Source: Candidatus Pacearchaeota archaeon
Lineage (GTDB): Archaea; Nanobdellota; Nanobdellia; Pacearchaeales; GW2011-AR1
Direction of reading: 5' to 3'
Assembly: GCA_041659945.1 (NCBI GenBank)
Contig: JBAZXH010000001.1
Location: forward strand, 262,742-326,741
DNA length: 64,000 bases
Shown here: positions 7,782-63,448 of the stretch, piece after piece
How the letters are laid out: every line of letters begins with the position of its first letter
How positions within the stretch are numbered: position 1 is the stretch's first letter
The notes under the pieces: generated by a model
What the model was told of the DNA's origin: nothing
The model's input: only the letters and a program-made list of their open reading frames with translations
The model's database searches: none
Position numbers and translations under genes: made by a program

Positions 7782-7787
7782 TTTAAA

Positions 7788-8054: not shown

Positions 8055-8160
8055 ACTTAAGATAATATTTCTTATCTATTAATATTTTAGCTTATTTTTT
8101 ATTGGAACACTAATGTTTCAAAAGAGAAACATTTATAAATCAGTGTTTTCTCTTGTTATC

Positions 8161-8457: not shown

Positions 8458-8466
8458 GGTTTATTC

Positions 8467-10116: not shown

Positions 10117-10173
10117 GTTTACCTCTAATTAATGATGCTTTTAGAATTTATCTAGCTTATTAATATTATTGTT

Positions 10174-10872: not shown

Positions 10873-10965
10873 TATTTAAATATAGTATTATTTTCTTATA
10901 AATGTTCTGTTTATTATGATTTGGCCATAGAAAAGTATATAAATGGGTGACTGCTAAATTGTTTT

Positions 10966-11238: not shown

Positions 11239-11247
11239 TAAAAAACA

Positions 11248-11784: not shown

Positions 11785-11923
11785 TTTTGAAAATATAAAG
11801 ATGAAATCTTAAAGTTTATTTCTTAATTTTTATTTAACAATATAATCTTGCTAATTTATAACATGATAAGATACAAAAATCATAAGACGAAAGGTATTTA
11901 AATAAGATTTTTGTTTTATTATC

Positions 11924-12487: not shown

Positions 12488-12507
12488 ACATAAATATTTA
12501 AAATAAA

Positions 12508-13017: not shown

Positions 13018-13071
13018 TTCTTCTTAAAACTGATTTTTGAAATAATCTAAAAATCTTTTGAAAATGTAATC

Positions 13072-13172
13072 TGAAAATGTATAAACAATAATTCGCGCTG
13101 CTCATTAAACTTCTGTAAGTTTTAGTTTAGTTTTATGGATGATGAATTAATCATCTTTAAACTTTGAATTTT
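13072..13172. repeat. Conserved intergenic element, copy 1 (possible small ncRNA gene or shared terminator/regulatory module)
   Basis: Alignable with 30074-30197. Shared segments: tgaaaat(g)tataaa.acaat; an identical 19-mer acttctgtaagttttagtt (13109-13127 vs 30112-30130); and aaactttRaatttt (13159-13172 vs 30184-30197). Both copies sit between convergent genes. Confidence 0.45.
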
Positions 13173-13228
13173 CCGTAAGAAAATTCTTATGACATGTTTT
13201 CAAGATTATATTAAAACTTTTAAGAAAA

Positions 13229-14269: not shown

Positions 14270-14712
14270 TATAGTTTATTTCTCCAAAAGTCGTGTTTTT
14301 GATATTCACTAGCCTCTTTTGATTCATTTTCCTCTGATTTATTATGTTGGTGGTGTTTATTTAGTTTTTCATCAACTATTTTTTCAACGTCTTCTATTCT
14401 TGCAAATTTTAATGGCTCAAACATTTTTAATTGCCTTGAAAGAATTGCAAGTTCTTCTTTTCTAGCACTTTTTGCTATCTCATCTGAAAACAATTGAATT
14501 AAATCTTTTATTCTTCTGACGTCGGTTTTTAGCTCATCAATTGTTTTTTTTATTTCAATAATATCTGATGAATTTTTTTCTTGAAAGTCTATTAGGTTTT
14601 GACCAAGCAATAAAACCCTTTCTTTTGTTAATCTTTGATTTTCTTCCAAGTCTCTTATTCTGAGACCTATTTCATATGAAACTGAATCCTGTGAAAGCTC
14701 TTCTTGCACCAT
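14269..14712 (-). CDS. Coiled-coil protein (147 aa), co-operonic with the Q-rich protein
   Basis: Charged heptad-like sequence throughout (IIEIKKTIDELKTDVRRIKDLIQ). Its stop overlaps the downstream start. Confidence 0.7.
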   Translation of the reverse strand: MVQEELSQDSVSYEIGLRIRDLEENQRLTKERVLLLGQNLIDFQEKNSSDIIEIKKTIDELKTDVRRIKDLIQLFSDEIAKSARKEELAILSRQLKMFEPLKFARIEDVEKIVDEKLNKHHQHNKSEENESKEASEYQKHDFWRNKL

Positions 14713-14803
14713 CTTTTTACAAAATAATGATGTTAAGGGGGTTTAAAATTGTTACGGCAACAATTTTAATGGTTGTTATTTGGGAGTTTTTGTTAAATTA
14801 TTT

Positions 14804-14821
14804 CCGAAAGATATATATATC
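14804..14821 (+). promoter_or_regulatory. BRE/TATA-like promoter of the 14893 surface-protein gene; a GGAGG Shine-Dalgarno follows at 14873-14877
   Basis: ccgaaagatatatatatc matches the cgaaa+TATA pattern recurring upstream of genes in this window. aggagg lies ~15 nt before the ATG at 14893. Confidence 0.45.
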
Positions 14822-14892
14822 TTTTTTTATTTTAATTGTAAGTTTATTTATGAAGTTAGTTATTAGGTGAAAGGAGGTTAAAAAAATAAAAG

Positions 14893-16743: not shown

Positions 16744-16754
16744 ATTTTTTAAAG

Positions 16755-16796
16755 ATGCCCAAGGACTTTTGTTCTTGGCATTTCTTTCTTTTTTTA
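16755..16796 (+). terminator. Hairpin plus T-tract terminator after the surface-protein gene
   Basis: atgcccaaggac-tttt-gttcttggcat forms an ~11-bp stem with one bulged C, followed directly by tttctttcttttttt. Confidence 0.5.
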
Positions 16797-16901
16797 TTAA
16801 TACTTAACTAAATCCTAATAGTTTTCTACCATAATTTTAACCATAGAAAACTATTTTAATCGATTTTAGATTCTTTATTTGTTATAAAGAGGAAAAAAGA
16901 G

Positions 16902-19175
16902 ATGTTATTTGATAAGACAACAAAATTATATGCATATGAGATAAGAAATGAATCGGGCCAAAATGTGGCCTATGTAAACTACTTGGGAGCACCCTACATA
17001 CCCTCAATAGCGGCTATTCCTGAAGTTATGGTTCGTACGGTAGATTTACTTATTGAATCTCAGAATATAACTAGGATTGTTTTTGTACAACAAAGAAATT
17101 ATAATTATGATTCTGATAAAGTTAATTTGCTTGCTGAAATAGCTTATCTTTATAACTTTTTAGTTAAACAGGAAAGGGTTTTATCCCCTGAAAAATTAGG
17201 AATGGCAAGCCAGGTAGTTATTTCTCAAAGATATGAACTAATTAATTATTTTTTGCAGTTGATGAAGCAGGACCCGGTTGCAGCATATCAACTAATTAAA
17301 AATGCATTGATAGAAGAGAAAGCCGCAGCAAGTGTTCCGGGAGCAATTAAAGAACTAGCTTATCTTATGCTGTTGGAAAAAGTTGTTTCTTTATTTGAAG
17401 ATACTGCTTTGATAAAAAAAGTTCTTGGAGATTATCAAGCAGGCCTTCCAAAAGATCGTAGTGTTTATAATCAGATATTTTTGGCAGATATAATACCAAA
17501 TTTTGCATTTGCAAGACTTGTTTCTTCACTTCCAGAAGACTCTAAAATTATTTCACAATATGAGATTGGTAGTGGTTCTGATAAGAGTACTGTTACAATA
17601 TTGAAAAAACCAAATGAGCTAAAATACTTTTATCATTTGATGCCCCCAGAATATTCTCTTAATGAAGAATTTCAAATGCTTTTGAACTTAGCAAGAAACG
17701 TTTTAATTGAGCATCAACCAAAGGCTGAAGAATTTATTGATCCGGCTAGGACAAGGCAGGTCTTTTTTAATGTTGCAAGAGACTTATTAAGAGAGCTTTC
17801 AGAAAATAAAAAGATATTTGTTTCGTATTCGGATTTGAACAAATTAGCAATGATTTTGGTTAGACATACAATTGGGTTTGGTTTATTGGAGGTGTTGTTG
17901 CAGGATAGACAACTGCAGGATATTGTTTTAAATGCTCCAATTAGTTTAACTCCGATTTATTTGAGACATGAAAAATATGATGAGTGTGTTACAAATATTA
18001 TGCTTAGTCAGGATGATGCTGATTCTTGGGCAGCTAAATTTAGAATGAGTTCGGGTAGACCTTTGGATGAGGCTAATCCCATATTGGATACTGATTTAGC
18101 TTTGGAAAAGATTAGAGCAAGAATTGCCATTGTTCAAAGACCGTTATCTTCTCAGGGATTGTCCTATGCTGTTAGAAGACATAGAGACTATCCGTGGACT
18201 TTGCCTTTGTTTATTAAAAATAAAATGATTAATTCTTTTGGTGCAGGTTTAATGAGTTTTTTAATTGATGGTGCTAGAACTTTATTGATTGCAGGAACAA
18301 GAAGCTCAGGAAAAACATCTCTTTTGGGAAGTTTAATGTTGGAAATAAAACCAAAGTATAGAATGATACTTATTGAAGATACTCCAGAATTGCCTGCAGA
18401 TTATATGAGGGAATTGGGTTATGATTTATTGAGTATGAAAGTTAGATCTTCCATGACTGAGACTTCCAACGAACTTGCTGCTGAAGAAGGAATAAGAACT
18501 AGTCTGAGACTTGGAGATTCATCTTTAATTGTTGGTGAAATAAGAAGTAATGAAGCTAAAGCTCTTTATGAAGCAATGAGAATTGGAGCTTTAGCAAATG
18601 TTGTTGCAGGTACAATTCATGGTTCGTCTCCCTATTCGGTTTTTGATAGAGTTGTTAATGATTTGAATGTTCCGGTAACTAGCTTTAAAGCAACAGATTT
18701 AATTTTGGTTGCAAATCCGGTTAGAACTCCGGATGGATTGCACTCCATGAAAAGAGTTATACAACTGACAGAGGTTAGAAAGCATTGGACTAAAGATCCG
18801 CTGGAAGAGGGAGGTTTTATTGATTTACTTAATTATAATGTTGAAAAAGATGATCTGGAACCAAGCCAGGAATTGATGAATGGTGATTCTGAAATTATTA
18901 AAACAATTGCTGCATCGGTTAAGGGATGGGTTGGTGATTGGGATGCGGTTTATGATAATATTTTGCTGAGAGGAAAGATAAAACAAGAACTAGTTAATAT
19001 TTCTGATAAACTGAAAAAACCAGAATTACTGGAAGCTAAATTTTCTTTTATTGCAAATAATATTTTTCATGAAGTTTGTGATGAAGTAACAAAAGAAATA
19101 GGAATTCCTAAATCTGAAAGAGTTTTTCCTGTTTGGGTTAAGAGACTGGATGAAGAAATACGGAAGTTCAGTTAA
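16902..19175 (+). CDS. Type IV pilus/secretion ATPase of the GspE/VirB11/FlaI-PilB family
   Basis: Walker A GTRSSGKTSLLGS (nt ~18291-18332), Asp box MILIEDTPEL, Walker B LIVGEIRSNEA and His box AGTIHGSSP, in the canonical order. The N-terminal region is unusually long (~450 aa). Confidence 0.85.
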   Translation: MLFDKTTKLYAYEIRNESGQNVAYVNYLGAPYIPSIAAIPEVMVRTVDLLIESQNITRIVFVQQRNYNYDSDKVNLLAEIAYLYNFLVKQERVLSPEKLGMASQVVISQRYELINYFLQLMKQDPVAAYQLIKNALIEEKAAASVPGAIKELAYLMLLEKVVSLFEDTALIKKVLGDYQAGLPKDRSVYNQIFLADIIPNFAFARLVSSLPEDSKIISQYEIGSGSDKSTVTILKKPNELKYFYHLMPPEYSLNEEFQMLLNLARNVLIEHQPKAEEFIDPARTRQVFFNVARDLLRELSENKKIFVSYSDLNKLAMILVRHTIGFGLLEVLLQDRQLQDIVLNAPISLTPIYLRHEKYDECVTNIMLSQDDADSWAAKFRMSSGRPLDEANPILDTDLALEKIRARIAIVQRPLSSQGLSYAVRRHRDYPWTLPLFIKNKMINSFGAGLMSFLIDGARTLLIAGTRSSGKTSLLGSLMLEIKPKYRMILIEDTPELPADYMRELGYDLLSMKVRSSMTETSNELAAEEGIRTSLRLGDSSLIVGEIRSNEAKALYEAMRIGALANVVAGTIHGSSPYSVFDRVVNDLNVPVTSFKATDLILVANPVRTPDGLHSMKRVIQLTEVRKHWTKDPLEEGGFIDLLNYNVEKDDLEPSQELMNGDSEIIKTIAASVKGWVGDWDAVYDNILLRGKIKQELVNISDKLKKPELLEAKFSFIANNIFHEVCDEVTKEIGIPKSERVFPVWVKRLDEEIRKFS

Positions 19176-19222
19176 GTAATTTTTTTCATTAGATTTATTA
19201 ATCTAAAATAATACTGCTATTT

Positions 19223-19813
19223 ATGTTAGAACTTGAGATTGTCAGAGCAATTAGTAATCTTGGAAGTGGAACTTTTTTAGATAAGATAAGCTGGTTTATT
19301 AGTTTGTATTCTTTTTTTGTTGTTCTTGGAGTTGTTTTGATGGTTTTGGTTTGGATTTATGATAGAAAGAATTTTAAAAAAGTACTTTTTGCAGTTATAA
19401 TTGCTCTTGCTTTGCATTTTGTGATAACTGAAGGAGTTTTTAAGGTTGTTATACCTCAGTTTACTGGAATTGGAATTCGTGAAAGGCCGTATATCTCTGA
19501 TAATAACCTAGTACCAATTGGCAAAATAGTTGTTGATTCATCTTTTCCCTCAGGACATGTATCTACGATTTTTGCCGTTGGAAGTGTATTTATGTTTTTT
19601 TATAGAAAGAAATGGTTTTTTGTTTTGGGAATAGGATTTGGAATTTTGGTAGCTCTTTCAAGAATACATAATGGGATGCATTATCCGAGCGATGTTATTG
19701 TTGGAGCAGGATTGGGGATTTTGTATGGATTAGTTGGTTTGTATTTTGCTAATCAGTTATATAAAATGAAAAGAATGAATGTTTTGAAAAGTAATAAGAA
19801 AATAAAATCTTGA
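19223..19813 (+). CDS. PAP2-family (type 2 phosphatidic acid / polyprenyl-diphosphate) phosphatase, copy 1
   Basis: All three PAP2 motifs are present: GIRERPY, FPSGHVS and SRIHNGMHYPSDV. The protein has six TM-like segments. Confidence 0.85.
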   Translation: MLELEIVRAISNLGSGTFLDKISWFISLYSFFVVLGVVLMVLVWIYDRKNFKKVLFAVIIALALHFVITEGVFKVVIPQFTGIGIRERPYISDNNLVPIGKIVVDSSFPSGHVSTIFAVGSVFMFFYRKKWFFVLGIGFGILVALSRIHNGMHYPSDVIVGAGLGILYGLVGLYFANQLYKMKRMNVLKSNKKIKS

Positions 19814-19854
19814 ATTTACTCAAAGTTTATTAATCACTATTTGTTTTATTTTTA

Positions 19855-20394
19855 ATGAAAATTGAGGCGAGGATAGTTCATTTTTTTAATAGAATTGGGA
19901 AAAATACTGTTTTGAACAAGATAACTTTGATTTTAAATTATATACCTTTCTTAGTAGCTCTTGTATTTATTATTATTATTTTTGTTTATTCTTATGACCC
20001 TGCAAATTTGAAAGTATTTTTAGCATCATTAATAATCGTGATTTGTTTTCACTTTTTAATAAGTGAACTTATTTTTAAGAAAGTAGTAGTTAGTTTTATT
20101 GGTATAAGAAAAAGACCCTATCTCTCTTATAGTTCTATTAAAGGAATTGGAAAGAAGTTTTCAGACAGTTCTTTTCCATCAAGTCATATGTCTGCAATTA
20201 CTGGTATCTTGTTTATTGTTAGTTACTTTTATCCATTAACAATTATCTTCTCAATTATCTTCCTTTTATTTATGGCTTTTTCAAGAATCCATAATGGAAT
20301 GCATTACCCTTCAGATGTTTTAGCAGGGTTTATTTTAGGATTATTTTATGGAGTTATGGGATTGAGTTTAGTTAATTTAATTTACGTTTTTTGA
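19855..20394 (+). CDS. PAP2-family phosphatase, copy 2 (tandem paralog)
   Basis: GIRKRPY, FPSSHMS and SRIHNGMHYPSDV, with the same architecture as copy 1. Confidence 0.85.
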   Translation: MKIEARIVHFFNRIGKNTVLNKITLILNYIPFLVALVFIIIIFVYSYDPANLKVFLASLIIVICFHFLISELIFKKVVVSFIGIRKRPYLSYSSIKGIGKKFSDSSFPSSHMSAITGILFIVSYFYPLTIIFSIIFLLFMAFSRIHNGMHYPSDVLAGFILGLFYGVMGLSLVNLIYVF

Positions 20395-20452
20395 TGCATT
20401 ATATTTATTAAGTCTTTTTTCTTTGATTTGTTATAAATAGAGGTGATACTTT

Positions 20453-52360: not shown

Positions 52361-52483
52361 TGAGCCTGCCAAGATTCGAACTTGGGACCACCGGCTCTCT
52401 TAGATTGTACTAAAAAAGCACTAAATTCTCACGAATTTGAGTCATATAAGACCGGTGCTCTAACCTGGCTGAGCTACAGGCTC
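52361..52483 (-). tRNA. tRNA-Ile(UAU) with a 48-nt canonical (37/38) intron
   Basis: On the minus strand: acceptor GAGCCUG/CAGGCUC plus discriminator A; D arm GCUC..GAGC; anticodon stem CCGGU/GCCGG; loop CUUAUA|intron|A; T arm CCAAG-UUCGAAU-CUUGG. The intron is at plus coordinates 52397-52444 and the anticodon at 52446-52448. The bulge-helix-bulge is: 4-bp helix CUUA/UAAG flanked by the 3-nt bulges UA|U and AG|A. A TATA (tttaaata) lies ~27 nt upstream. Confidence 0.8.
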
Positions 52484-54526: not shown

Positions 54527-54599
54527 GCCCGGATAGTGTAGTGGCCTAGCATTCCACCCTGTCACGGTGGCGACCCGAGTTCAAATCTCGGTCCGGGCG
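54527..54599 (+). tRNA. tRNA-Asp(GUC); integration target of the downstream element
   Basis: Acceptor GCCCGGA/UCCGGGC plus G73; anticodon stem CCACC/GGUGG; loop CUGUCAC (anticodon 54561-54563); T arm CCGAG-UUCAAAU-CUCGG. 73 nt with no encoded CCA. Confidence 0.9.
54588..54599 (+). repeat. attL core (direct repeat)
   Basis: tcggtccgggcg, the last 12 nt of tRNA-Asp. Confidence 0.7.
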
Positions 54600-54685
54600 C
54601 TTTTCTTAATTTTATAAACGCCCTGTTTTACCTTTTAGTAAACGTTCTGAGGATATAAAAGCATAATAGTAATAATAAACTCAGA

Positions 54686-55972
54686 ATGGAAACAAAAATA
54701 GAAATTCATAACTCGGAAAGACAATTTGCAAGGTCAAAAGAATTGCTTATGCAAGACCCTTTAATTTGCAAGGAAAATAAAGAGATTATTCTTCAGTTTA
54801 TTTTAGACTGTGAAATGGGAAAGACATTAAGGAATACTTCTAAGAAGAAGATTGAGACAAGAAGACTTACTCGTTTGGTAGATATTCTACGTAATTTTTC
54901 ACACTGGTTCAATAAACCATTTAATGAAATTACTCAAGAAGATTTAGAGAGAGTTATTTTCAAACTTGAAAAAGGCGAGTATAAGAAAAAATTTACAACA
55001 AGAGTTAATGGGGAGTTTGTTGTTAGGCTTACAGATAAACCATATAGTAATGGGTCAGTAGTCTATTTTAAAAAAGTATTGAAAAAATTTGATAGATGGT
55101 TAAAGGTAAATAAAATTAATTTGAATCTTGATATGGGCTATGTGGAGATAATAGAACAAACACAAACAGACTTTGAGATAATTACAAGGAAAGAGCTTAA
55201 TACTCTTTTAGAACATGCTGACTCTACCTTTTGGAGAGCTTTTATCTCTATCCTTTGGAGTTGTGGTTTTAGAATTGAAGAGACACTAAATATTCGGATG
55301 AGGCACGTAATTCCTCCACATAATACTGAAGAAGATAATGAGAACCACATAATTAAGATTATGTTTTCTAAAAATAAATTTGGTATACGAAATGCAGAGG
55401 TTTTACTTGAATGTGCTAACAAATATTTAAAAGAATGGATTGACGAATACAAAACTAAGGAAGGGCATAATGATAGTTCTCCTTTATTCCCAATAAAGTA
55501 TATAACTGCATTCTCAAAACTCCAAAGTTTAGGTAAAAAATGTCTTAACAAGAAAGTAGGGTGCCATACTTTTAGACATAGTTCGGCAACATATTGGTGT
55601 AATATTTTAACTCACGCTAAACTTTGTTGTTTGATGGGATGGGCATTCTCCAGTAAGATGCCAGACGTCTATATTAAACGTTCAAGTGTTATGTCTGATA
55701 AGACAGCTATTAAACTTATAAAGAATTTAGAAATTAGTGAGTTTAAACAAGAAAATGATTCTTTGAAAGAGGAACTTAGCCAATTAAAGATAAGACAAAC
55801 TGAGACAGAAGAAATGCTTAAAAAAATGGCGAGTCAGCTTCAATCACCTATGCAAATACCTTATAACGGGAATACTGCAATAATCTCTGTAAGTGGATTA
55901 TCTTATCAGGATAATTTCATGCCATTTGAGATTCCAAAGAAAGATATAAAAACTAATTCCTTTCTTTTATAA
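54686..55972 (+). CDS. Tyrosine recombinase/integrase (intact, non-partitioning type)
   Basis: Catalytic signature in order: CGFRIEETLNI (Arg), CHTFRHSSATYW (HxxR) and MPDVYIKRS (Tyr). The gene is adjacent to the tRNA. Confidence 0.85.
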   Translation: METKIEIHNSERQFARSKELLMQDPLICKENKEIILQFILDCEMGKTLRNTSKKKIETRRLTRLVDILRNFSHWFNKPFNEITQEDLERVIFKLEKGEYKKKFTTRVNGEFVVRLTDKPYSNGSVVYFKKVLKKFDRWLKVNKINLNLDMGYVEIIEQTQTDFEIITRKELNTLLEHADSTFWRAFISILWSCGFRIEETLNIRMRHVIPPHNTEEDNENHIIKIMFSKNKFGIRNAEVLLECANKYLKEWIDEYKTKEGHNDSSPLFPIKYITAFSKLQSLGKKCLNKKVGCHTFRHSSATYWCNILTHAKLCCLMGWAFSSKMPDVYIKRSSVMSDKTAIKLIKNLEISEFKQENDSLKEELSQLKIRQTETEEMLKKMASQLQSPMQIPYNGNTAIISVSGLSYQDNFMPFEIPKKDIKTNSFLL

Positions 55973-55987
55973 TCTTATATTGATTTA

Positions 55988-56446
55988 TTAACTCTTTAGC
56001 TTTTCAGAAATTAGATTAAAGTTACTATAATAATACTCTCTGTTGTAATAGCAGGAAACAGAATGGTTTTCTAACTGAAAAAAGTGCTTGTTGTAATGCC
56101 AACCATAATTTATAGTTAAATTTAAATTATTGATGCTACTTTGATTTAAAATTAATTTGAATTGGGCTGTTGAACCAGGTGAAAGATATAGATAATCTGA
56201 ATTTTTAACAAATGTAATATTAGGATCTTCTGACCAGATATTTACATAAAGGGGGTTTGCTTCTTTATTGCCCTGATTAATGAATGAAACTTCGAAGGAA
56301 GAAGGAATTAAAGTGTTTGGACAAGTTGAATCATAGCCTATTTGTCTGATTCTTATAATATTAGGGCTATTAAAAAATCCAATAGTGCTCAAAACTATGA
56401 TAATTGTTAATATAGTTCCAATTACCCATTTAATTTCATATCGCAT
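55988..56446 (-). CDS. Element-encoded N-terminally anchored beta-rich protein (152 aa)
   Basis: TM segment WVIGTILTIIIVLSTIGFF, then a beta-sandwich-like ectodomain with NxS/T sequons. Confidence 0.55.
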   Translation of the reverse strand: MRYEIKWVIGTILTIIIVLSTIGFFNSPNIIRIRQIGYDSTCPNTLIPSSFEVSFINQGNKEANPLYVNIWSEDPNITFVKNSDYLYLSPGSTAQFKLILNQSSINNLNLTINYGWHYNKHFFQLENHSVSCYYNREYYYSNFNLISEKLKS

Positions 56447-56475
56447 CTTAAATTATGTTTTTGTAACTTATAAAT

Positions 56476-57558
56476 TTATTGTAAACTTAAAAAATTTTTA
56501 ACAATGATTGGAACTGAGAGTAAACAAAACCCGAGTAATGCTAAGGTTAAATACATAAAACTATTTTTTTCAGTTTTAAACTCTTCATAATTTGGGTATC
56601 TTATTGGCCAGCCAACAGAAAAACAGGTATTATTATCTCTAAACTCAAAACTAATGTAAGATAAATTAAACGGAACAATAAAGGAGTAACTTTCGTTACT
56701 ATATATTTTTTCAGTTTTTGAAGAGCCATCAGCAAAGGTAAAGTTAACTTTCCCCTCACCAGGGAAACTTTCTATTATCATATTCTGAAATTTGCAATAA
56801 ACTTTATTTCCAGAAATTACATGATTATTCAAATCCGCACATTTAATTTCTCCCAATTTCTCGTGGTTGCCATAACAATTAGTTAAATCAAAATCCATTC
56901 TTCTTTCACCAGTATAAATATTAATAAATACTGAGCCTATATTAAGCAATAAAATTATCAAAAAAATTGAAATTAATAATCTTTTATTTCTTTTATTTAC
57001 TGGTGTCCATACTTTCTTTAAGAATATTAAATGTAAGACTAAGATTATAAGAATTATTATAAACAGTGAAAAATCACCAATAATATCTGTACTTCTTAAA
57101 AAGAAGACTATAAAAGTTATGGCTGGAAATAAAAAGTATTGTATAAAAATATTTTGGTATTTATAAATTAATGGTAGCACTAAGAATACAAGATTAAATA
57201 ATACTATAATATAAACTACTGTTTTTAATGGAAACCAAGTAATATCTCCAAAGTTAGTTGAAAGAATCCCTTTTAGTATTAAATATAAAAAGAAACTAAA
57301 TAATGAAATCAAAAATAAAACTATCGCAAAAATATATTTTTCAAAAGGATAATCTTTAAAATATAAATTAATATTTTTGATAGCTATGACTAAATGTCTT
57401 TTTAATACTGATAAAATCTTTTTTATTTTTTTAAAAATGATTATAATATAATAACTGAGTTTATTTCTAATAACAAAAGAAGTTATAATAATTAAAATTA
57501 TACCTAAAACATACCAAAATTTAATTAGATAACTTAATAGATATGGGATATTTTCCAT
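56476..57558 (-). CDS. Element-encoded polytopic membrane protein (360 aa) with a C-terminal ectodomain and terminal TM
   Basis: ~8 hydrophobic segments, a Cys-containing soluble region (CYGNHEKLGEIKCADL...CKFQ) and a final TM YLTLALLGFCLLSVPIIV. Confidence 0.6.
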   Translation of the reverse strand: MENIPYLLSYLIKFWYVLGIILIIITSFVIRNKLSYYIIIIFKKIKKILSVLKRHLVIAIKNINLYFKDYPFEKYIFAIVLFLISLFSFFLYLILKGILSTNFGDITWFPLKTVVYIIVLFNLVFLVLPLIYKYQNIFIQYFLFPAITFIVFFLRSTDIIGDFSLFIIILIILVLHLIFLKKVWTPVNKRNKRLLISIFLIILLLNIGSVFINIYTGERRMDFDLTNCYGNHEKLGEIKCADLNNHVISGNKVYCKFQNMIIESFPGEGKVNFTFADGSSKTEKIYSNESYSFIVPFNLSYISFEFRDNNTCFSVGWPIRYPNYEEFKTEKNSFMYLTLALLGFCLLSVPIIVKNFLSLQ

Positions 57559-57591
57559 GTATTATTAAATAAACAGGAATTTTATACTTTT

Positions 57592-57846
57592 CTATATTTC
57601 TCCTCTTATTTTCTTACCTTTTTCTGTTAGAGTGTAAACTCTTCCTAACTTTTCTTGTTCATTAAGGCATTTTGCTATTTTTTGTTCTACAAACAACCTT
57701 AAAATATCACTTACATTATTTAATGCCAAACCCGTTAGTCTTTTAATCTGGGTGGGAGTCAATGGCTTATCCATTATTTTGATTATTTTCTCTCTTTGGG
57801 AACCCCTTACTATCCAAGAGTATAATTTAATCTCTTCTTTGTTCAT
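57592..57846 (-). CDS. Small winged-helix (ArsR-like) regulator
   Basis: KPLTPTQIKRLTGLALNNVSDILRLFVEQKIAKCLN...GRVYTLTEKG. Confidence 0.7.
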   Translation of the reverse strand: MNKEEIKLYSWIVRGSQREKIIKIMDKPLTPTQIKRLTGLALNNVSDILRLFVEQKIAKCLNEQEKLGRVYTLTEKGKKIRGEI

Positions 57847-57937
57847 ATAACAGTATCTTTTAAGAATTAAAAGGGATTACACTGAATTTATACCGAAACA
57901 ACGAAAGGTTTATATATCTCTTAAAGATTGATTTTTT

Positions 57938-58840
57938 ATGAGAAAGTTAGTTGTTGGGGTATTATTTGCCTTTCTTTTAGTGGGAATAGTTAGTGCCGTT
58001 CAAGTTTGTGAGAACTATGATAATTTTAATTCTGGAAGTTTAGATTCGTCAAAGTGGACTATTAAACAAGATATTGAGGGTCAACCTCTTATGGATGAAG
58101 GAACTATTCTTAATGAAAATGGTTTTGTATTTCATACTAAACAAAATACTCCTACAGATAGAAGAATTTACTTAGTTCCTAATTATGCTTTCAAATCTGG
58201 AGATGTTTTTGAGTATGATTTGAATGTAGTATCTTATGATGGAGTTTATGGTAGTTTAGTTTTATTGACTGGTGACTTGTATGCCAGACTGGGAATAGTT
58301 GGACAAAATGGCGGTCCTCAACCGTTTAATGAATTAGGATTAACTCATGTAATATTAAACTTCTCTCAGAATAATCTTCAGCTAACAAGAATTTCTCCTT
58401 CAAATCAGTCTTATATACAAAATATTGCTCTACCTATTCAGAATGGAACTTATGGATTATACGTTGGTTCTTTTTCAGGTAGCAACGGCGTTGCTCATAT
58501 AGATTATGATAATTTCAAAATTTGTAAAGATGTTCAAGTTGTAGATTCAGATAATGATGGGGTAAATGATAATATTGATAAATGTCTTAATACAAACTTG
58601 CCAGAAAAATTTAATAGATTGATTCTTGCAAGATATGGCGATATTGATGGAGATAAGATTTTTGAAACTGTTAAATTAAACAAAAAAGATAAACTAACAG
58701 TGATTGATAGTTCTTATGCCTTAAAAGATACTTTTGGGTGTTCATGTAAACAAATCTTAAAATTAACACATTCTCACTCAGCAGAACAATTTTTTGGTTG
58801 TAAGAAGGCTACAATTACTAAATTTATACGTTCTTTTTAA
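57938..58840 (+). CDS. Secreted ConA-like lectin/glucanase-fold protein with a thrombospondin type-3 (Ca-binding) repeat
   Basis: Signal MRKLVVGVLFAFLLVGIVSA. YDNFNSGSLDSSKWT is the typical GH16/LamG-like N-terminal strand. DSDNDGVNDNIDKC is a TSP3 repeat. tttatatat lies ~25 nt upstream of the ATG. Confidence 0.65.
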   Translation: MRKLVVGVLFAFLLVGIVSAVQVCENYDNFNSGSLDSSKWTIKQDIEGQPLMDEGTILNENGFVFHTKQNTPTDRRIYLVPNYAFKSGDVFEYDLNVVSYDGVYGSLVLLTGDLYARLGIVGQNGGPQPFNELGLTHVILNFSQNNLQLTRISPSNQSYIQNIALPIQNGTYGLYVGSFSGSNGVAHIDYDNFKICKDVQVVDSDNDGVNDNIDKCLNTNLPEKFNRLILARYGDIDGDKIFETVKLNKKDKLTVIDSSYALKDTFGCSCKQILKLTHSHSAEQFFGCKKATITKFIRSF

Positions 58841-59298
58841 TGGAAACTGAAAAACCTAAAAACTGGTTTAAGAAACATAAGATAATTACTGGATTTTTAA
58901 TCTTCTTTGTCCTCATATGGTTAATTGGTTCTACAGCTTATATTTTTGGGTATAGGTCTGAAAATTCGCAACAGACTTCTTATAACTCAAATACTCAAAG
59001 TTCTATTTCTTCAACAAGTCCTTCTATCGGAGAAGAGGGCAGACTTTACTCTAATGGTCAAGACACTCTTGTTGCAGTAGACAAAGCAAGCCTTGATGAA
59101 CTAACTCATGCTTTTACTGTTAAAGATACAATAGGTGCTCAAAATATGGTTTTAGATGGTAGAGCTTTTTTTGTTAAAAGCAATACAAAAATTTTAGTTT
59201 TGGATAGTGATTTTGCTGTTAGAGAGTTTAGAATTCTTGAAGGAGATAATTACGAAAAAGTTGGTTGGGCCCCTAAAGAATGGATTATTAAAGGGTAA
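58840..59298 (+). CDS. Membrane-anchored protein with S/T/Q-rich linker and small C-terminal beta domain
   Basis: TM IITGFLIFFVLIWLIGSTAYIF. ATGG/TAATG-type abutment with the upstream gene. Confidence 0.55.
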   Translation: METEKPKNWFKKHKIITGFLIFFVLIWLIGSTAYIFGYRSENSQQTSYNSNTQSSISSTSPSIGEEGRLYSNGQDTLVAVDKASLDELTHAFTVKDTIGAQNMVLDGRAFFVKSNTKILVLDSDFAVREFRILEGDNYEKVGWAPKEWIIKG

Positions 59299-59487
59299 AT
59301 AAAAAGGGACTAAAAGAATATGAAGATAGTATTTACAAAGAATATATTAAAGAAAAAGCAAGGTTACAAGCAAGGAAAAAACACAGTAAATAATAATACT
59401 TTATTTCTCAATTAATTAACTACAATCCAGGAAAGTTTAAATTAGGCTTATTCTTAGTATTAACATGGAATAAGAAGTATAAAGAAA

Positions 59488-60015
59488 ATGAGTTTAACAT
59501 TAATTGAGTTTTTAGGGATATTTTTAGGTTTAGGGGGATTTATTTTAGGAGTTATTAATTCTTGGGTATTATTAGCAAAATATAGAAAAGATAAACCAAT
59601 TATTAAAATAAAAAAAGATATTACTTACAAAAAACATAAAAAATTTGATGAAATAAGCCCTGTTAGTTATGCAGATAAAGCTATCAGAGGAGAATTTAAT
59701 AACAATATCCTTAATTGTGAAATTAGAGAATTTATAGTAGATATAATAAATAAAGGGCATAGAGATGCAAGACTAAAAAGTGTTTTACCATTATATAAAC
59801 CGAAAGGACTAAAAGATTTTTATCCAAAGGTTATAGGTTTTCATCCAATGACAATAAGTGCTGGAGATAAAGAATTTGTTCATCTATTTTTTGAGTTTCC
59901 ATCAGATATAATCAAAAAAATTGAAAAGACGTCAATAAATGTAATAATAGTTGAATTTGATTTTGTACATAAAAAAATCAAAGAAAAATTTTTGATAGAG
60001 CTGAAAGAAAATTAA
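59488..60015 (+). CDS. N-terminally anchored hypothetical protein (175 aa)
   Basis: TM LIEFLGIFLGLGGFILGVINSWVLL. The promoter gaaagtttaaatta lies upstream. Confidence 0.5.
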   Translation: MSLTLIEFLGIFLGLGGFILGVINSWVLLAKYRKDKPIIKIKKDITYKKHKKFDEISPVSYADKAIRGEFNNNILNCEIREFIVDIINKGHRDARLKSVLPLYKPKGLKDFYPKVIGFHPMTISAGDKEFVHLFFEFPSDIIKKIEKTSINVIIVEFDFVHKKIKEKFLIELKEN

Positions 60016-60230
60016 TCATTTACTTTAAGCCATAATCTCCCGTCTCTTTTAACAGCTACACCTCCCAAGTCTCCAATAGCAATAACCTCTTCGGGATTAC
60101 CAGAGGTTATAAAACCGCAACTAATTTCCTCTTGTTTTACAAGTAATTCTTTACATACTTTACATTTTAGGTTTTTCTTAGTCAAATTAGTTTCAATTTC
60201 TCTATTACACGTTTTACAGATAAGTCTCAT
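60012..60230 (-). CDS. Zinc-ribbon protein (72 aa)
   Basis: CKTC...CKVC. It overlaps the upstream gene by 17 nt. Confidence 0.55.
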   Translation of the reverse strand: MRLICKTCNREIETNLTKKNLKCKVCKELLVKQEEISCGFITSGNPEEVIAIGDLGGVAVKRDGRLWLKVND

Positions 60231-60822
60231 CTTCTTGTTTCTCCTTTAATTCTTGTTCTTTTTTAGGTTCTTTCTGGGTGGTTACCTTTTCTTTTGGATA
60301 AACTACTTCTATCATATGATCTGGTTTACCTTCTTGATTTTTGACTATTACAAGGTCTCCATTCCAAAATTTTCTTTCAAAGCTATATAACTCTCTGTCA
60401 AATTGCTCTTTTTCTTCAATACTTAGTCGTGGAACTAACCAAGAAAGTAAATAGTTCTTTAGCTCTTTTCTTCCCCTAGTCTCTTTCTCCCATAAATCAA
60501 TAAAGTCTAGTGCATCCTTTTTCCAAGATTGAGCCTCTTCATCTAACTGAGGTATTGGTTTGTAATAATCTCCAAAAGTTTTGAAGACTGACAATAATGT
60601 ATTTACAAGAATAAGCCTTTCTCTTACATCTAAATCACTTTTTTCAATTTCTTCAATATTTTGAGCTATTTTTTGTGCAAAATTATCTGGATTCCTTATT
60701 AGGTCAAGGATTTTTGGATTAAGGTATTTTGAGTATTCTCCAGTTTTTAGTGGATTAAGGATTGCACTAACTTGCTTACGTTTACTGGTTCGTTTTGACT
60801 TTTCCTCTTGTTCGTTTTTCAT
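60214..60822 (-). CDS. Element hypothetical protein (202 aa, basic N-terminus, acidic C-terminus)
   Basis: ATGA overlap with the upstream mini-ORF. Confidence 0.55.
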   Translation of the reverse strand: MKNEQEEKSKRTSKRKQVSAILNPLKTGEYSKYLNPKILDLIRNPDNFAQKIAQNIEEIEKSDLDVRERLILVNTLLSVFKTFGDYYKPIPQLDEEAQSWKKDALDFIDLWEKETRGRKELKNYLLSWLVPRLSIEEKEQFDRELYSFERKFWNGDLVIVKNQEGKPDHMIEVVYPKEKVTTQKEPKKEQELKEKQEDETYL

Positions 60823-60959
60823 TGTAACTCCTCCAGGTAATTTGTTAGTTTCTTTCCTATTTTGGCCAATTTAGGTTCTATTCCATGAATTTCTGGCTCT
60901 TCTTGGTCTACCCAGAGTAATGTAGCTTCTAATACTCTGATTATTTCTTCCTTGTTCAT
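60819..60959 (-). CDS. Mini-protein (46 aa; not in the ORF track)
   Basis: MNKEEIIRVLEATLLWVDQEEPEIHGIEPKLAKIGKKLTNYLEELQ. ATGA start/stop overlaps on both sides (with 60956-62389 and 60214-60822) argue for translational coupling. Confidence 0.55.
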   Translation of the reverse strand: MNKEEIIRVLEATLLWVDQEEPEIHGIEPKLAKIGKKLTNYLEELQ

Positions 60960-62389
60960 TTTAATGTCTCTGAGAAATTAATCTCTTCAATTTTAGTTTG
61001 TTTTATATCGTTTAGAGGTTTAATACCTTGAATACCTTTAGCACCTGTTTTATTTTCTTGAGGTATTAAAGGTTCTAAAGGTGTTAAATCGATTTTAGTC
61101 AACTCTTCAAACTCGGGTAGATTTATTTTTTCATTTTCTCTATAGCTCTTTGATATACTATATATTGTTATATCTCTATTCCAAGTGTCTTTATCCGTGA
61201 ACATTTCAAGGAGCCCATATTTTACTAAAAAACCCAAGTTAGTCTGCAGTGCTGGTAGAGACATAAACTTCATTTTAGAATCATGTAACATTGAGGCAGA
61301 ACCTGTTAATTGAGGTTCATTCTCAAAGGTTTCTAAAATGTGCTTTTGATTTATTGTCAGTGGAATCATATACTTGTTTGAACAGAGTTTTAGAAAGCAT
61401 AATCTTGCTATTTCGTAATCCTGTTTTTCTGCTAAAATATACCCTTCTTCGTCTATTTTTCTTTGAAACTGGTGGAATGCTGCAGCTGCTGCAATGAAAT
61501 CAAGAAACCTTGGGTAATGGGTTCTCATTATCACGTTTTTTACTGGTAGGTATTTGTCAATTAAATCCGCAAAAGGAACTTTTACTTTAACTCTCTTCAA
61601 ATGTTTCATTACTTCAGTATAATATTCATAGTAACCTGGAACAATTCCCTTTTTCTTATACTCGGAGTGTCTTTTCATAATTGCCTTTGTTTGTTCTTCT
61701 GAACTATCAAGATTTAGAATAACAAATCTTCTTATTAATTCAGGACTGGGTATTGCAGAGGCGGTAGTAGTTATCATTACTGGTTTACCTTTTATTTCAA
61801 TGTCTACTGCTTTTTGTTTTATGGTTACTGTGGCAGAACTTCCTTTAGAGGTCATTACTTTAAAGACGTCAGAATTTAGAACCATCTCTGAAATGTCTTC
61901 AGGGTAGAATACCTTTCCGTCCCAAGTCCATTCTTCTTCAGTATGCCAGTAGGTGAATACTGCAGGCGAGATTCTTGTTTTGTGTATATAGTATTTAGTA
62001 GGTAGTATTTCAAGAACTGCTCCTACTACATAATCTTTACCTGTTCCAGCTTCGTCATTTACTAAAAGGTTATATGAGGCAATTTGGCAGTTTTCAACAA
62101 GCCTACCACATGCACATAAAAATATGACTTTCCTTGCTTCAATTTCTCCAACAATTTTTTTATCAAACTCATTTTCTGTAATTTCATTGAATATGTTAGG
62201 ATTTTTTAAAACTTCAAGGTATTCTGGAGAAATATCTTTTTCTAACATTAATTTTTCATAATTTTCTGGACTAATACCTCCAATACTTAAAGCAAGATTT
62301 TTATTAACAGGGTCACGAAAATTCGGTTGACCCTCACCTTCAAAAACGCTTTTATCTCTCCAGTATTTTGCTTCTGCTTCAGTTGTCAT
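60956..62389 (-). CDS. Element P-loop-like NTPase (probable replication/helicase or packaging protein)
   Basis: The hydrophobic strand plus deviant P-loop is YNLLVNDEAGTGKDYVVG. A later segment reads KPVMITTTASAIPSPELIRRFVILNLD. It is the largest gene in the overlapping operon. The family is not recognised with confidence. Confidence 0.5.
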   Translation of the reverse strand: MTTEAEAKYWRDKSVFEGEGQPNFRDPVNKNLALSIGGISPENYEKLMLEKDISPEYLEVLKNPNIFNEITENEFDKKIVGEIEARKVIFLCACGRLVENCQIASYNLLVNDEAGTGKDYVVGAVLEILPTKYYIHKTRISPAVFTYWHTEEEWTWDGKVFYPEDISEMVLNSDVFKVMTSKGSSATVTIKQKAVDIEIKGKPVMITTTASAIPSPELIRRFVILNLDSSEEQTKAIMKRHSEYKKKGIVPGYYEYYTEVMKHLKRVKVKVPFADLIDKYLPVKNVIMRTHYPRFLDFIAAAAAFHQFQRKIDEEGYILAEKQDYEIARLCFLKLCSNKYMIPLTINQKHILETFENEPQLTGSASMLHDSKMKFMSLPALQTNLGFLVKYGLLEMFTDKDTWNRDITIYSISKSYRENEKINLPEFEELTKIDLTPLEPLIPQENKTGAKGIQGIKPLNDIKQTKIEEINFSETLK

Positions 62390-62561
62390 TTTTCACTCCT
62401 AATTTTTCTTTAATTTTTAGAATTCTATCTAAAGGAAGTATTAACCGATTGGTATCAGTAATTAGAGTTATGAAATGTTCGTCTATATTTTCAATTATGG
62501 CAATTAAACTTTCTGGTTCTTCTCTTTCACCCTTATAAATTATAGTTTTCTTTTCTTCCAT
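62379..62561 (-). CDS. Small element protein (60 aa)
   Basis: Overlaps the downstream ATPase gene by 11 nt. Confidence 0.45.
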   Translation of the reverse strand: MEEKKTIIYKGEREEPESLIAIIENIDEHFITLITDTNRLILPLDRILKIKEKLGVKNDN

Positions 62562-62661
62562 CTTTTCTTATCCTATCAAGTCTTGCCTTGCACGAAGGAC
62601 ACTCTCGTGGTTGTTCGACCCTATTTTCCCACTCTAACCCGCAATTGATGCATTGTTTCAT
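62533..62661 (-). CDS. Zinc-ribbon mini-protein (42 aa; not in the ORF track)
   Basis: MKQCINCGLEWENRVEQPRECPSCKARLDRIRKDGRKENYNL has CxxC...CxxC. The segment is locally GC-richer and is the first gene of the minus-strand operon. Confidence 0.45.
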   Translation of the reverse strand: MKQCINCGLEWENRVEQPRECPSCKARLDRIRKDGRKENYNL

Positions 62662-62732
62662 ATTATTACTACGAACTTATGCCTTAAAAATGCTTAATAT
62701 CTTTACATATAGGTATAGGTTTACCTAAAGGG

Positions 62733-62746
62733 AAACGTTTAAATAG
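62733..62746 (+). promoter_or_regulatory. BRE/TATA promoter of the 62767 regulator gene
   Basis: ggaaacgtttaaatag, with the TATA ~25 nt upstream of the ATG. It is divergent from the minus-strand operon. Confidence 0.45.
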
Positions 62747-62766
62747 TTTAATAATCATAGTAATAT

Positions 62767-63288
62767 ATGGCTGATGTAATTATAAAGAGAAGACAGAAAA
62801 AATCGAGAGAAATATTCGTAGAAGAAAGAGTAGCAAAGGGGTATAATCAAAAAAGTAACGAGAAACTTCTTACTATTATCAGTATTTTAACCGAGTTATT
62901 AAAAGAGCATTCAAGAGAAGGATTGTTAATCACTGAAATAGCAGAAAAAATAGGTAGGACAAGACAAACAGTAAACAATACCATCTATGAATTAGAATCT
63001 GAACTGGGAGTAGTTGAAAAGCGAGGAGAAAAATGGTTTGCTAATCATGAAACTGGTATGTTTTATGAATCTTTAATGGAAAAGGAACTTGGCTTTAACA
63101 CATTTAAACCTGTTCAGATTAAAACTTTTAAAAATGAAACTATTAGGATAGGAAACCAAAATATTTCAGCCACGGGCTCTATATGGACAAATCAATTTAC
63201 AAAAGAAACTGACCCAAATAAGATTATTTCTTCTGGTATGGCTGATTTAATAATACTTAAACCTGCAGGAGCACAACCAATTATATGA
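62767..63288 (+). CDS. Element wHTH regulator (173 aa)
   Basis: GLLITEIAEKIGRTRQTVNNTIYELESELGVVEKRGEKWF. Confidence 0.65.
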   Translation: MADVIIKRRQKKSREIFVEERVAKGYNQKSNEKLLTIISILTELLKEHSREGLLITEIAEKIGRTRQTVNNTIYELESELGVVEKRGEKWFANHETGMFYESLMEKELGFNTFKPVQIKTFKNETIRIGNQNISATGSIWTNQFTKETDPNKIISSGMADLIILKPAGAQPII

Positions 63289-63324
63289 TATTTCAACGAA
63301 CGTTTATAAAAAAAGTATAACAAT

Positions 63325-63336
63325 TCGGTCCGGGCG
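63325..63336 (+). repeat. attR core (direct repeat)
   Basis: tcggtccgggcg is identical to 54588-54599. Confidence 0.7.
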
Positions 63337-63448
63337 TTCTTGATATTGAACTCGGTGAAATATCATAAACTCTTTTTAATTGTATTTAGTTTGTTATTAT
63401 GCTTCTCAACACAACAAACTTATTAAACAACTAAAATTATGTTTTTTT

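Follow-up and report, generated by a model that had tools for sequence, protein, structure and literature searches.

The tRNA-Asp locus and the boundaries of the inserted element

We analyzed a 64,000-nt stretch of the genome of a Candidatus Pacearchaeota archaeon (GCA_041659945.1, JBAZXH010000001.1, 262,742-326,741 of the forward strand; hereafter the window, whose positions are counted from its first nucleotide), in which a mobile element is inserted at the 3′ end of a tRNA-Asp(GTC) gene. The window lies within an 832,568-bp contig (ENA ERZ27249449, k141_293002; NCBI locus tags WC796_), the proteins of which are entered in NCBI as 'MAG: Candidatus Pacearchaeota archaeon' (MAG, metagenome-assembled genome), and NCBI taxonomy assigns the organism to the kingdom Nanobdellati, equivalent to DPANN. 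A preliminary description of the window had proposed an ~8.7-kb mobile element in the 3′ end of a DPANN tRNA-Asp gene, and this proposal was borne out by the taxonomy and by the trailer match and attP reconstruction given below. The features that delimit the element, including a trailer recognized by comparison with the Pacearchaeota relative L029 (JGI 3300037810, Ga0376277_0000032), and the integrase gene with which it opens, are the following:

54527-54599, + strand: intact tRNA-Asp(GTC) (Rfam RF00005, 59.5 bits; placed at 54527-54600 by ARAGORN)
54588-54599, + strand: attL core TCGGTCCGGGCG, the last 12 nt of tRNA-Asp, from an exact 12-mer search
54610-54620, no strand: attP inverted repeat, right arm TTTTATAAACG, separated from the core by 10 nt; a predicted integrase-binding site
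54686-55972, + strand: tyrosine integrase of 428 aa, intact, of the non-partitioning type, starting 87 nt past the core
63301-63311, no strand: attP inverted repeat, left arm CGTTTATAAAA, separated from the core by 13 nt
63325-63336, + strand: attR core TCGGTCCGGGCG, from an exact 12-mer search
63337-63386, + strand: displaced tRNA-Asp trailer (host DNA), which aligns to the sequence directly 3′ of tRNA-Asp in L029

The two cores bracket 8,737 bp, and each runs from the 3′ part of the T-stem through the 3′ acceptor strand to the discriminator base of the tRNA. The recurrence of the tRNA end at 63325-63336, already noted in the preliminary description, was confirmed by an exact search, which found precisely two copies of TCGGTCCGGGCG in the window, with chance copies in 0 of 100 dinucleotide-preserving shuffles and no further copy in the window even when one mismatch was allowed. 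Longer or alternative boundaries were considered and rejected, as no longer direct repeat brackets the region and no additional copy of the tRNA end was present in the 10 kb downstream of the window. The GC fraction of the element (0.294) was below that of every 8.7-kb window of the host (0.316 ± 0.007, minimum 0.3045).

Alignment to L029 located the native 3′ flank of the tRNA gene. The 50-nt stretch after the distal core aligned with the L029 tRNA-Asp trailer with a score of 22 (shuffles 9.2 ± 1.8, 0/2000), and the corresponding stretch after the proximal core gave a score of 8 against 7.8 and no alignment. Homology to the trailer at attR but not at attL is what an insertion of the 8.7 kb between the end of the tRNA and its native trailer would be expected to produce.

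When the ends of the element were joined in silico, the core became flanked by a perfect 11-bp inverted repeat, CGTTTATAAAA/TTTTATAAACG, which arises only on joining and was matched in 6 of 1000 shuffles. The reconstructed attP junction reads AAAGTATAACAAT-TCGGTCCGGGCG-CTTTTCTTAATTTTATAAACG, and the reconstructed attB junction GAGTTCAAATC-TCGGTCCGGGCG-TTCTTGATATTGAACTCGG. Judged from their sequence and position, the inverted arms are likely integrase-binding sites. Together, the trailer match, the attP-like site, and a layout that recurs in related elements establish a real site-specific insertion with these boundaries.

The catalytic set of the integrase is complete (R196, H294-x-x-R297, W319, and Y329). 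The protein matched Pfam Phage_integrase PF00589 with 32.7 bits (cut-off 27.1) and phrog_1 (integrase) at 1.7e-18, in agreement with the earlier reading of an intact tyrosine integrase 87 nt after the tRNA; its best NCBIfam match was XerA, at 53.8 bits against a cut-off of 220 for this equivalog family. The integrase gene is left unsplit by integration and attP lies outside it, as expected from the description of a non-partitioning integrase with a duplicated att core.

A rival explanation, that a chance 12-nt repeat happens to lie in ordinary chromosomal DNA beside a Xer-like recombinase, can appeal to the shortness of the repeat and to XerA as the best NCBIfam match of the integrase. Such a match, however, reached only 53.8 bits of the required 220, no shuffle reproduced the repeat, the trailer homology begins exactly at the distal copy, and the inverted repeat spans the joined ends; in addition, four more elements share the architecture and the genes of the element are absent from syntenic loci (see below). 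We consider a chance repeat refuted by the shuffles, the trailer homology, the inverted repeat, the family architecture, and the syntenic loci, and its probability vanishingly small.

The trailer itself contains a hairpin, TGATATT-N11-AATATCA, at 63341-63365, the arms of which are identical in L029. Its spacer region includes TTGAACTCGG (63346-63355), a sequence complementary to CCGAGTTCAA of the tRNA T-arm. The hairpin possibly serves as a terminator or as a signal for processing, or it may be what remains of an inverted piece of a tRNA.

The same site in related genomes

To the relative L029 a second one, L027 (GCA_038869755.1), could be added, and in both the CDP-OH transferase encoded ahead of the tRNA is 57-60% identical to that of the window. 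Both keep the order peptidase, CDP-OH transferase, and tRNA-Asp, followed further on by DUF4234 and HerA; at these syntenic loci TspO was found in L029 only and the large RFC subunit in L027 only. On whether relatives carry the same genes in the same place without a repeat boundary, a point raised by the preliminary description, none of the proteins of the element is encoded at the syntenic tRNA-Asp loci of L027 and L029. Both are distant relatives, so this comparison for absence of the insertion spans genomes whose CDP-OH transferases are 57-60% identical.

The tRNA-Asp of L029 has an intron of 63-65 nt, confirmed with Rfam. Three copies of the tRNA-end 12/13-mer occur at this locus (L029 7480-9880), where a 2.1-kb segment, which encodes a metallophosphoesterase and no integrase, lies between duplicates of ~150 nt made up of core, trailer, and partial core. 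This segment is probably a decayed element or a recombination scar at the same hot spot.

A different situation was seen in a further relative, L011/L058, in which tRNA-Asp is identical and the upstream genes are the same, but the site is occupied by another element with an integrase and a Rep of its own (29% and 60% identity, respectively). In L011 (13887-19054), a resolvase (Pfam, 4.8e-48) is followed by three large open reading frames (ORFs) of 517, 425, and 782 aa; attR of the L011 element was not found in the 14 kb of sequence searched.

The Rep helicase and its operon

The gene for Rep, the predicted replication protein of the element, lies in an operon with the following ORFs:

62533-62661, − strand: 42-aa zinc-ribbon ORF (CxxC...CxxC) with which the Rep operon opens, uncalled in the source annotation
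62379-62561, − strand: 60-aa ORF overlapping the start of Rep
60956-62389, − strand: Rep (477 aa), an AAA+/P-loop replicative helicase whose C-terminal domain is winged-helix-like
60819-60959, − strand: 46-aa ORF overlapping Rep at one end and the 202-aa gene at the other; it was called as a gene in the source assemblies
60214-60822, − strand: 202-aa charged protein with no transmembrane (TM) helix, in the Rep operon, with no family or virus match
60012-60230, − strand: 72-aa zinc-ribbon protein (CxxC...CxxC), encoded at the end of the Rep operon

The tightly overlapping operon with a P-loop-like ATPase that had been described from the sequence is thus present, with the ATPase at 60956-62389, and so are the two zinc-ribbon mini-proteins, at 60012-60230 and 62533-62661.

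Rep falls in Pfam PF27228 (MTBMA_p00010_2nd), as do all 120 listed homologues, according to precomputed annotation. Among the candidates scored, 451 homologues were found at E ≤ 1e-3, and the best 120 of these 451 were 54-74% identical to Rep; hundreds of family members share 55-72% identity with it. Many of the homologues are on contigs of 2-10 kb, and some are fused to PrimPol PF09250 or to PF08800. Motifs recognized in Rep include Walker A (G115-x-G117-K118-D119), an acidic pair (E164-D165), T208-T209, and R220-R221. All invariant residues and columns of the family alignment are kept, P-loop/AAA+ motifs included.

The structure prediction that the preliminary description had suggested for 60956-62389 placed Rep with an MCM-like fold. 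An AlphaFold2 model built with 23 homologues reached a mean pLDDT (predicted local distance difference test) of 80.7, and the best 50 Foldseek matches of the model in the PDB were all MCM subunits (E ~1e-8, TM 0.37-0.45). Residues ~60-430 superpose on the AAA+ core and C-terminal winged helix of MCM helicases (Foldseek TM 0.40-0.45); the Walker A, acidic, TT, and RR motifs are invariant in the Rep family, and RR recalls the arginine-finger region. Among the viral structures of BFVD, the best matches were primase-helicases of the NrS-1, DUF3987, VirE, and D5 kinds, with a best E of 1e-20.

At the sequence level the comparison with MCM was negative, with no match to Pfam MCM (PF00493) at E ≤ 0.1 and no PDB chain at E ≤ 1. 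We therefore rejected membership of Rep in the MCM family, as the likeness is at the level of fold only and Rep has neither a sequence match nor the N-terminal OB/zinc domain. A tblastn search of PLSDB gave matches of 23-26% identity over residues ~40-330 on 14 bacterial plasmids; the matching regions are mostly annotated as Toprim/CHC2 primase, with three lacking annotation and one annotated as a hypothetical protein. A tblastn search with Rep of 50,697 deposited genomes of phages and archaeal viruses found no match. On the modelled structure and these comparisons, we call Rep a predicted MCM-like, primase-associated AAA+/P-loop replicative helicase, which may belong with either the AAA+ MCM-like or the SF3-like (superfamily 3) helicases. 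At best, it might work like an MCM-type hexameric helicase.

Small ORFs occupy the same position upstream of Rep in related elements, although their similarity to the 60-aa ORF is weak and unconvincing. A GC-richer stretch at 62578-62655 was considered as a structured RNA or origin and rejected, since its folding z-scores were 0.2-0.7, it had no Rfam match, and it corresponds to the 42-aa zinc-ribbon ORF. No iterons were present in the three intergenic regions of the element and no primase was recognizable within it; a scan for promoters and terminators, which uses a consensus of the bacterial type, was uninformative.

A family of related elements

Scanning with the Rep alignment, we obtained 16 loci in GTDB species genomes, 4 in IMG/VR, and 80 in JGI metagenomes. 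A homologous integrase was also found in at least 25 of these ~100 Rep loci, many of the others being short contigs. The family occurs in MAGs labelled Pacearchaeota, Woesearchaeota, Micrarchaeota, and Iainarchaeota. Four further elements share the layout of the one in the window, with a tRNA gene whose last 12-15 nt are repeated some kilobases away and with integrase and Rep encoded between the repeats:

L009, Micrarchaeota: tRNA-Arg, 12-nt repeat, 5.6 kb
L015, Micrarchaeota: tRNA-Asp, 15-nt repeat, 8.7 kb
L111: tRNA-Gln, 13-nt repeat, 7.3 kb
L026, same Pacearchaeota genome as the window (contig 626-647 kb): tRNA-Glu, 14-nt repeat, 12.8 kb

Inverted arms around the reconstructed core were also examined in the relatives, giving 13 bp in L009 (0/1000 shuffles), a match in 3/1000 shuffles for L015, and weak arms in L026. 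The attP arms of the family begin with an ACGTT(N)TA-like motif.

The L026 element occupies positions 7607-20403 of its locus (record positions ~633.7-646.5 kb), where tRNA-Glu(TTC) ends in a 14-nt sequence (20390-20403) with a second copy at 7607-7620. It encodes an integrase, a Rep 65% identical to that of the window, a serine resolvase, and a 165-aa ORF with a motif like that of AEP (archaeo-eukaryotic) primases.

Two relatives are likely circular. L037 (6,025 bp, with a 127-nt terminal overlap, corresponding to a 5.9-kb circle) encodes Rep, an integrase (Pfam, 52.7 bits), and several further proteins that are small and mostly uncharacterized, and L041 (7,499 bp, with a 55-nt terminal overlap, corresponding to a 7.4-kb circle) encodes a PrimPol-Rep fusion of 681 aa, a resolvase, and an integrase. 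Their Rep proteins are 65-67% identical to that of the window. The most GC-rich 14-mer of the L037 circle, located 65 nt upstream of the integrase gene, is flanked by a perfect 15-bp inverted repeat, suggesting an attP of the same design. No virion genes were recognized in L037 or L041, with three of their smaller ORFs scanned against profiles. L037 also encodes, at 368-544, a 58-aa protein with two hydrophobic helices, similar in shape to the major capsid protein of spindle-shaped viruses; no such ORF is present in the element of the window.

Distant Rep homologues were also found on contigs of 30-40 kb, and one distant relative, L021, matched Pfam MCM with 17.9 bits, below the cut-off. The 41.7-kb contig L024 (IMGVR_UViG_3300017963_000425) encodes, within positions 10001-19778, a Rep homologue 47% identical to that of the window and a portal/minor-head fusion (phrog_9232, 3.6e-23). 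The Rep family is therefore common to small plasmid-like elements and at least one head-tailed virus.

This distribution bears on the possibility that the element is a virus satellite comparable with P4/PICI or pSSVx/SRCE, that is, a tRNA-integrated, plasmid-derived replicon that uses the virions of a helper. An integrase, a primase-associated helicase, small regulators, and no capsid make up a typical satellite layout; the larger virus-like DPANN contigs with members of the Rep family (L024 with its portal, and L007, L008, L023, and L025) offer a plausible pool of helpers; and satellites have been proposed for Nanohaloarchaeota (bioRxiv 10.1101/2025.02.15.638363). The element nevertheless has no helper-derived major capsid protein or morphogenesis AAA+ ATPase of the kind found in SRCE and pSSVx, no packaging-related gene, and no identifiable cos/pac site, no helper was identified, and sharing of a Rep family with viruses is common among plasmids. 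A satellite therefore seems quite improbable to us.

Integrated and excised states

The preliminary description had suggested looking for the circular junction and the empty tRNA-Asp site, which was done here by string scans of assembled contigs; neither was detected, and the element was seen in its integrated state only. A lookup of contigs encoding the flanking proteins or the terminal proteins of the element likewise returned the integrated state only, with two uninformative Logan contigs that end inside the tRNA. The assemblies searched consist of consensus contigs, which rarely record rare excision products.

Such results would be expected of a fixed, domesticated island, formerly mobile but no longer excising or replicating, with its cargo kept for the host. 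The integrated state was the only one found, in five contigs from several samples, no attP or attB junctions were found in the contigs searched, and the AT-rich composition of the element is near that of the host. Set against this, the two cores are identical and both arms of the inverted repeat are intact; the catalytic residues of the integrase and the invariant residues of Rep are all kept; the element contains no frameshifts, and its genes are tightly packed and often overlap; and the kind of contig searched would seldom reveal excision. We accordingly give a fixed island little credence, about as little as a satellite.

Regulators and cargo

The remaining genes of the element encode two putative regulators and five membrane or secreted proteins:

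55988-56446, − strand: 152-aa protein with one N-terminal TM helix by hydropathy, with no family match and absent from related loci
56476-57558, − strand: 360-aa membrane protein with ~7 TM segments by hydropathy, the last of them preceded by a ~120-aa extracellular domain
57592-57846, − strand: 84-aa winged-helix DNA-binding protein directly upstream of the 360-aa gene (HTH_45/IclR, sub-threshold)
57938-58840, + strand: secreted 300-aa protein with a signal peptide and a ConA-like lectin/GH16-fold domain at residues ~20-199
58840-59298, + strand: 152-aa protein with an N-terminal TM anchor and a marginal match to a PHROG of unknown function (3.7e-4)
59488-60015, + strand: 175-aa protein with an N-terminal TM anchor by hydropathy and no family match
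62767-63288, + strand: 173-aa winged helix-turn-helix (wHTH) regulator adjoining attR (HTH_11 8.6e-5, HTH_20 1.3e-4, both sub-threshold)

The inventory agrees with what had been described from the sequence, namely two wHTH regulators (57592-57846 and 62767-63288, with sub-threshold HTH matches), five membrane or secreted proteins (consistent with hydropathy), and no housekeeping gene, none of the ORFs in the element matching a housekeeping family in Pfam and NCBIfam scans. The secreted lectin-like protein was likewise supported, by its predicted structure: the AlphaFold2 model of 57938-58840 had a pLDDT of 80-90 in the lectin domain, with a Cys-containing C-terminal region of ~100 aa unmodelled, and Foldseek placed GH16 glucanases and legume lectins at the top of its PDB matches (E 7e-7 to 1e-4). 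No more than 6 homologues of the 300-aa protein were found. The 173-aa wHTH protein also matched phrog_1368, a transcriptional regulator family, at 1.7e-4.

Apart from the integrase, no ORF of at least 42 aa had a match above threshold in Pfam, NCBIfam, PHROG, or PADLOC. The 13 ORFs other than those for integrase and Rep are absent from the ~100 related Rep loci, save for weak homologues of the 84-aa wHTH protein in L006, L019, and L036, which also carry Rep. The family of the 360-aa protein comprises 85 representative clusters at E ≤ 1e-3. Its closest homologues (44% identity) are encoded on the 3.6-kb contigs L033-L035, beside a solo Cas1 of 398 aa and with a small HTH protein ahead, a context that could be casposon-like or CRISPR-adjacent. 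A conserved module of wHTH and membrane protein was considered and rejected, as the small proteins encoded upstream of the 360-aa homologues had no detectable homology. In tblastn searches, the 360-aa protein, the lectin-like protein, the 152-aa protein at 58840-59298, and the 202-aa protein had no match in the 50,697 phage and archaeal virus genomes, and a search of IMG/VR gave no match either.

This gene content raises the question of whether the element is the provirus of an enveloped, pleomorphic, or spindle-shaped archaeal virus, with the membrane proteins and the lectin as envelope and spike. Five of the 15 ORFs encode membrane or secreted proteins, and the ConA-like lectin domain could act as a receptor-binding protein; both the size of the element and its combination of integrase and helicase would suit a small archaeal virus; homologues of Rep were seen on IMG/VR contigs and on one contig of a head-tailed virus; and archaeal virion proteins are often missed by profile searches. 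However, no PHROG structural family was matched, there was no tblastn match in the 50,697 virus genomes or in IMG/VR, and the element has no two-helix capsid protein of the fusellovirus type, no C-terminally anchored spike, and no morphogenesis ATPase. The candidate 'structural' genes are missing from the ~100 Rep loci, although a virion module is expected to be the conserved part, and the related circular-looking contigs (5.9-7.4 kb) have no recognizable structural module. We thus regard a provirus as unlikely. A provirus specifically like Pleolipoviridae or Fuselloviridae was rejected, as there is no virion module, the lectin lacks a C-terminal anchor, and the only NTPase is the Rep helicase. 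The pleolipovirus- or fusellovirus-like gene content that the preliminary description had perceived was accordingly not upheld, with no PHROG or tblastn match, no small ORF with two TM segments, and an NTPase that is a replication helicase.

Nature of the element and proposed mechanism

We conclude that the element is probably an integrative plasmid, or 'cryptic integrated element', of its Candidatus Pacearchaeota host. The plasmid side is favored because Rep is a replication helicase rather than a packaging or morphogenesis NTPase, because no ORF matches a virus protein and the membrane and lectin genes are absent from the ~100 Rep loci, and because the circular-looking L037 and L041 carry integrase, Rep, and small DNA-binding or accessory genes with no recognizable structural gene. 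Of the alternatives that had been left standing side by side at the outset, provirus and integrative plasmid, the evidence thus leans to the latter, and nothing positive was obtained for the former. An integrative conjugative element was also considered and rejected, since no VirB4/TraG-type ATPase or mating-pore protein was matched in Pfam or NCBIfam and 8.7 kb is too small.

Several observations count against this conclusion. The preference for plasmid over virus draws on negative evidence, and archaeal virion proteins are often unrecognizable; seven ORFs have no detectable function, and five proteins are membrane or secreted; and the Rep family is found in the head-tailed virus contig L024 as well. 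The circularity of L037 and L041 is deduced from terminal overlaps only. L029 is not a pristine empty site, as it has its own att-bounded 2.1-kb remnant, and the 11-bp arm taken by itself is only moderately significant in AT-rich DNA. Finally, neither an excised circle nor an empty site of this element was found, all five contigs with its genes being integrated; the exact attB and attR strings were absent from JGI metagenome contigs, and the attP string was absent from IMG/VR.

As an integrative plasmid, the element would behave as follows. Its circular form would carry attP, with a 12-bp core equal to the last 12 nt of tRNA-Asp(GTC) and the arms CGTTTATAAAA/TTTTATAAACG situated 10-13 nt from it. 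The tyrosine integrase, encoded beside attP, would carry out recombination between this core and the 3′ end of the tRNA-Asp gene in the chromosome; the element would provide a replacement 3′ end, so that the tRNA stays intact and the native trailer is displaced 8.7 kb downstream. Rep, with its MCM-like predicted fold and C-terminal winged helix, may drive episomal replication; its operon also codes for four small proteins, two of which are zinc ribbons. Because the element encodes no primase, the host primase and replisome or polymerase would presumably be recruited. The two wHTH proteins probably control the balance between maintenance and excision. About 4 kb of element-specific cargo codes for envelope proteins, the secreted ConA-like lectin together with four membrane proteins, and may modify the cell surface of the episymbiotic host.

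A more far-reaching view would make the element one representative of DPANN-wide, tRNA-targeting replicons with a 12-15-bp core, whose cargo re-tools the surface of the episymbiont in a form of 'lysogenic conversion' or, alternatively, is the envelope module of an unrecognized lineage of enveloped viruses or satellites. We put this forward as a doubtful extension, no more probable than the provirus.

Relation to known systems

Elements with pNOB8-type integrases in Sulfolobales and Thermococcales integrate into tRNA genes. The closest parallels in design are the cryptic integrated elements (CIEs) and integrative plasmids of Thaumarchaeota (Krupovic et al. 2019, PMC6563490), which resemble the element of the window in being smaller than 20 kb, with att direct repeats, a non-partitioning tyrosine integrase, a replication protein of the mobile-element type (MCM, MCM-like, or primase-helicase), wHTH regulators, and variable cargo, and in lacking viral hallmark and conjugation genes; they too were validated by means of relatives lacking the insertion. 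The element of the window differs from these CIEs in its DPANN host, in an att core of 12 nt (12-15 nt in the family) at the extreme 3′ end of the tRNA, in a Rep that belongs to the distinct family PF27228 and is not an MCM by sequence, and in a cargo of mostly envelope proteins. Recruitment of MCM by archaeal mobile genetic elements, and the Cch helicase of staphylococcal SCCmec, provide precedents for helicases of this kind on mobile DNA (PMC6563490).

Plasmid and phage primase-helicases (archaeal PrimPol and bacterial Toprim/CHC2 fusions) are a second point of comparison, since relatives of Rep are fused to PrimPol or PF08800; in contrast, Rep of the window is a helicase only, and the sister element L026 has a separate 165-aa AEP-like ORF. 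The namesake of PF27228 is pME2001 of Methanothermobacter marburgensis, to which Rep of the window is related through the precomputed family annotation; no Methanothermobacter plasmid was among the tblastn matches of Rep in PLSDB. pME2001 itself is a plasmid of 4.4 kb that is not known to integrate.

The small plasmid-type replicons pSSVx and pSSVi, and the SRCE elements known from haloarchaea and Nanohaloarchaeota (bioRxiv 10.1101/2025.02.15.638363), are similar in having a DPANN or other archaeal host and a Rep family shared with co-occurring viruses. SRCE and pSSVx are, however, defined by the major capsid protein of spindle-shaped viruses and/or a morphogenesis AAA+ ATPase, none of which was detectable in the element of the window. 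A 2026 survey reported few proviruses in Nanobdellota and none in Micrarchaeota (PMC13573593).

Integrative plasmids that target tRNA genes are standard in archaea, and the Rep domain already has a Pfam entry; the finding changes no concept, and the element arguably adds a newly delineated DPANN-wide family to a well-known kind. Mobile elements of DPANN archaea are barely characterized, and the locus offers a cleanly delimited one with attL, attR, and a reconstructed attP. The family signature, comprising Rep of PF27228, a tyrosine integrase, a tRNA-end core of 12-15 nt, and inverted arms of the ACGTTnTA type, could serve as a search model with which to find such integrations in the reduced genomes of DPANN archaea. 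The element is also a candidate backbone for genetic tools, being a small replicon that brings its own site-specific integrase and has a known target, and elements of this kind might carry envelope genes from one episymbiont to another.

Flanking genes

On both sides the element is bordered by ordinary archaeal genes, which upstream encode Met-tRNA synthetase, MinD/ParA, ribosomal protein S15, a DHH-family protein, and CDP-alcohol phosphatidyltransferase, and downstream ALAD, topoisomerase IB, TspO, HerA, and RFC. The tRNA-Asp(GTC) was the single tRNA that ARAGORN reported in the window; a 123-nt, evidently intron-containing tRNA at 52361-52483 (− strand; Rfam, 57.7 bits) was missed by this program.

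Porphobilinogen synthase (ALAD) and a eukaryote-type topoisomerase IB adjoin the integration site (L005 10989-12976, just past the end of the window). The pair is non-syntenic in L027 and L029 and is unusual content for a reduced DPANN genome. Further downstream, the orthologues of a HerA/DUF87 ATPase have 436 aa and no intein in L027 and L029, and the host protein (L005 14258-16687, ~4.3-6.7 kb past the end of the window) has 809 aa with an intein and a LAGLIDADG endonuclease.

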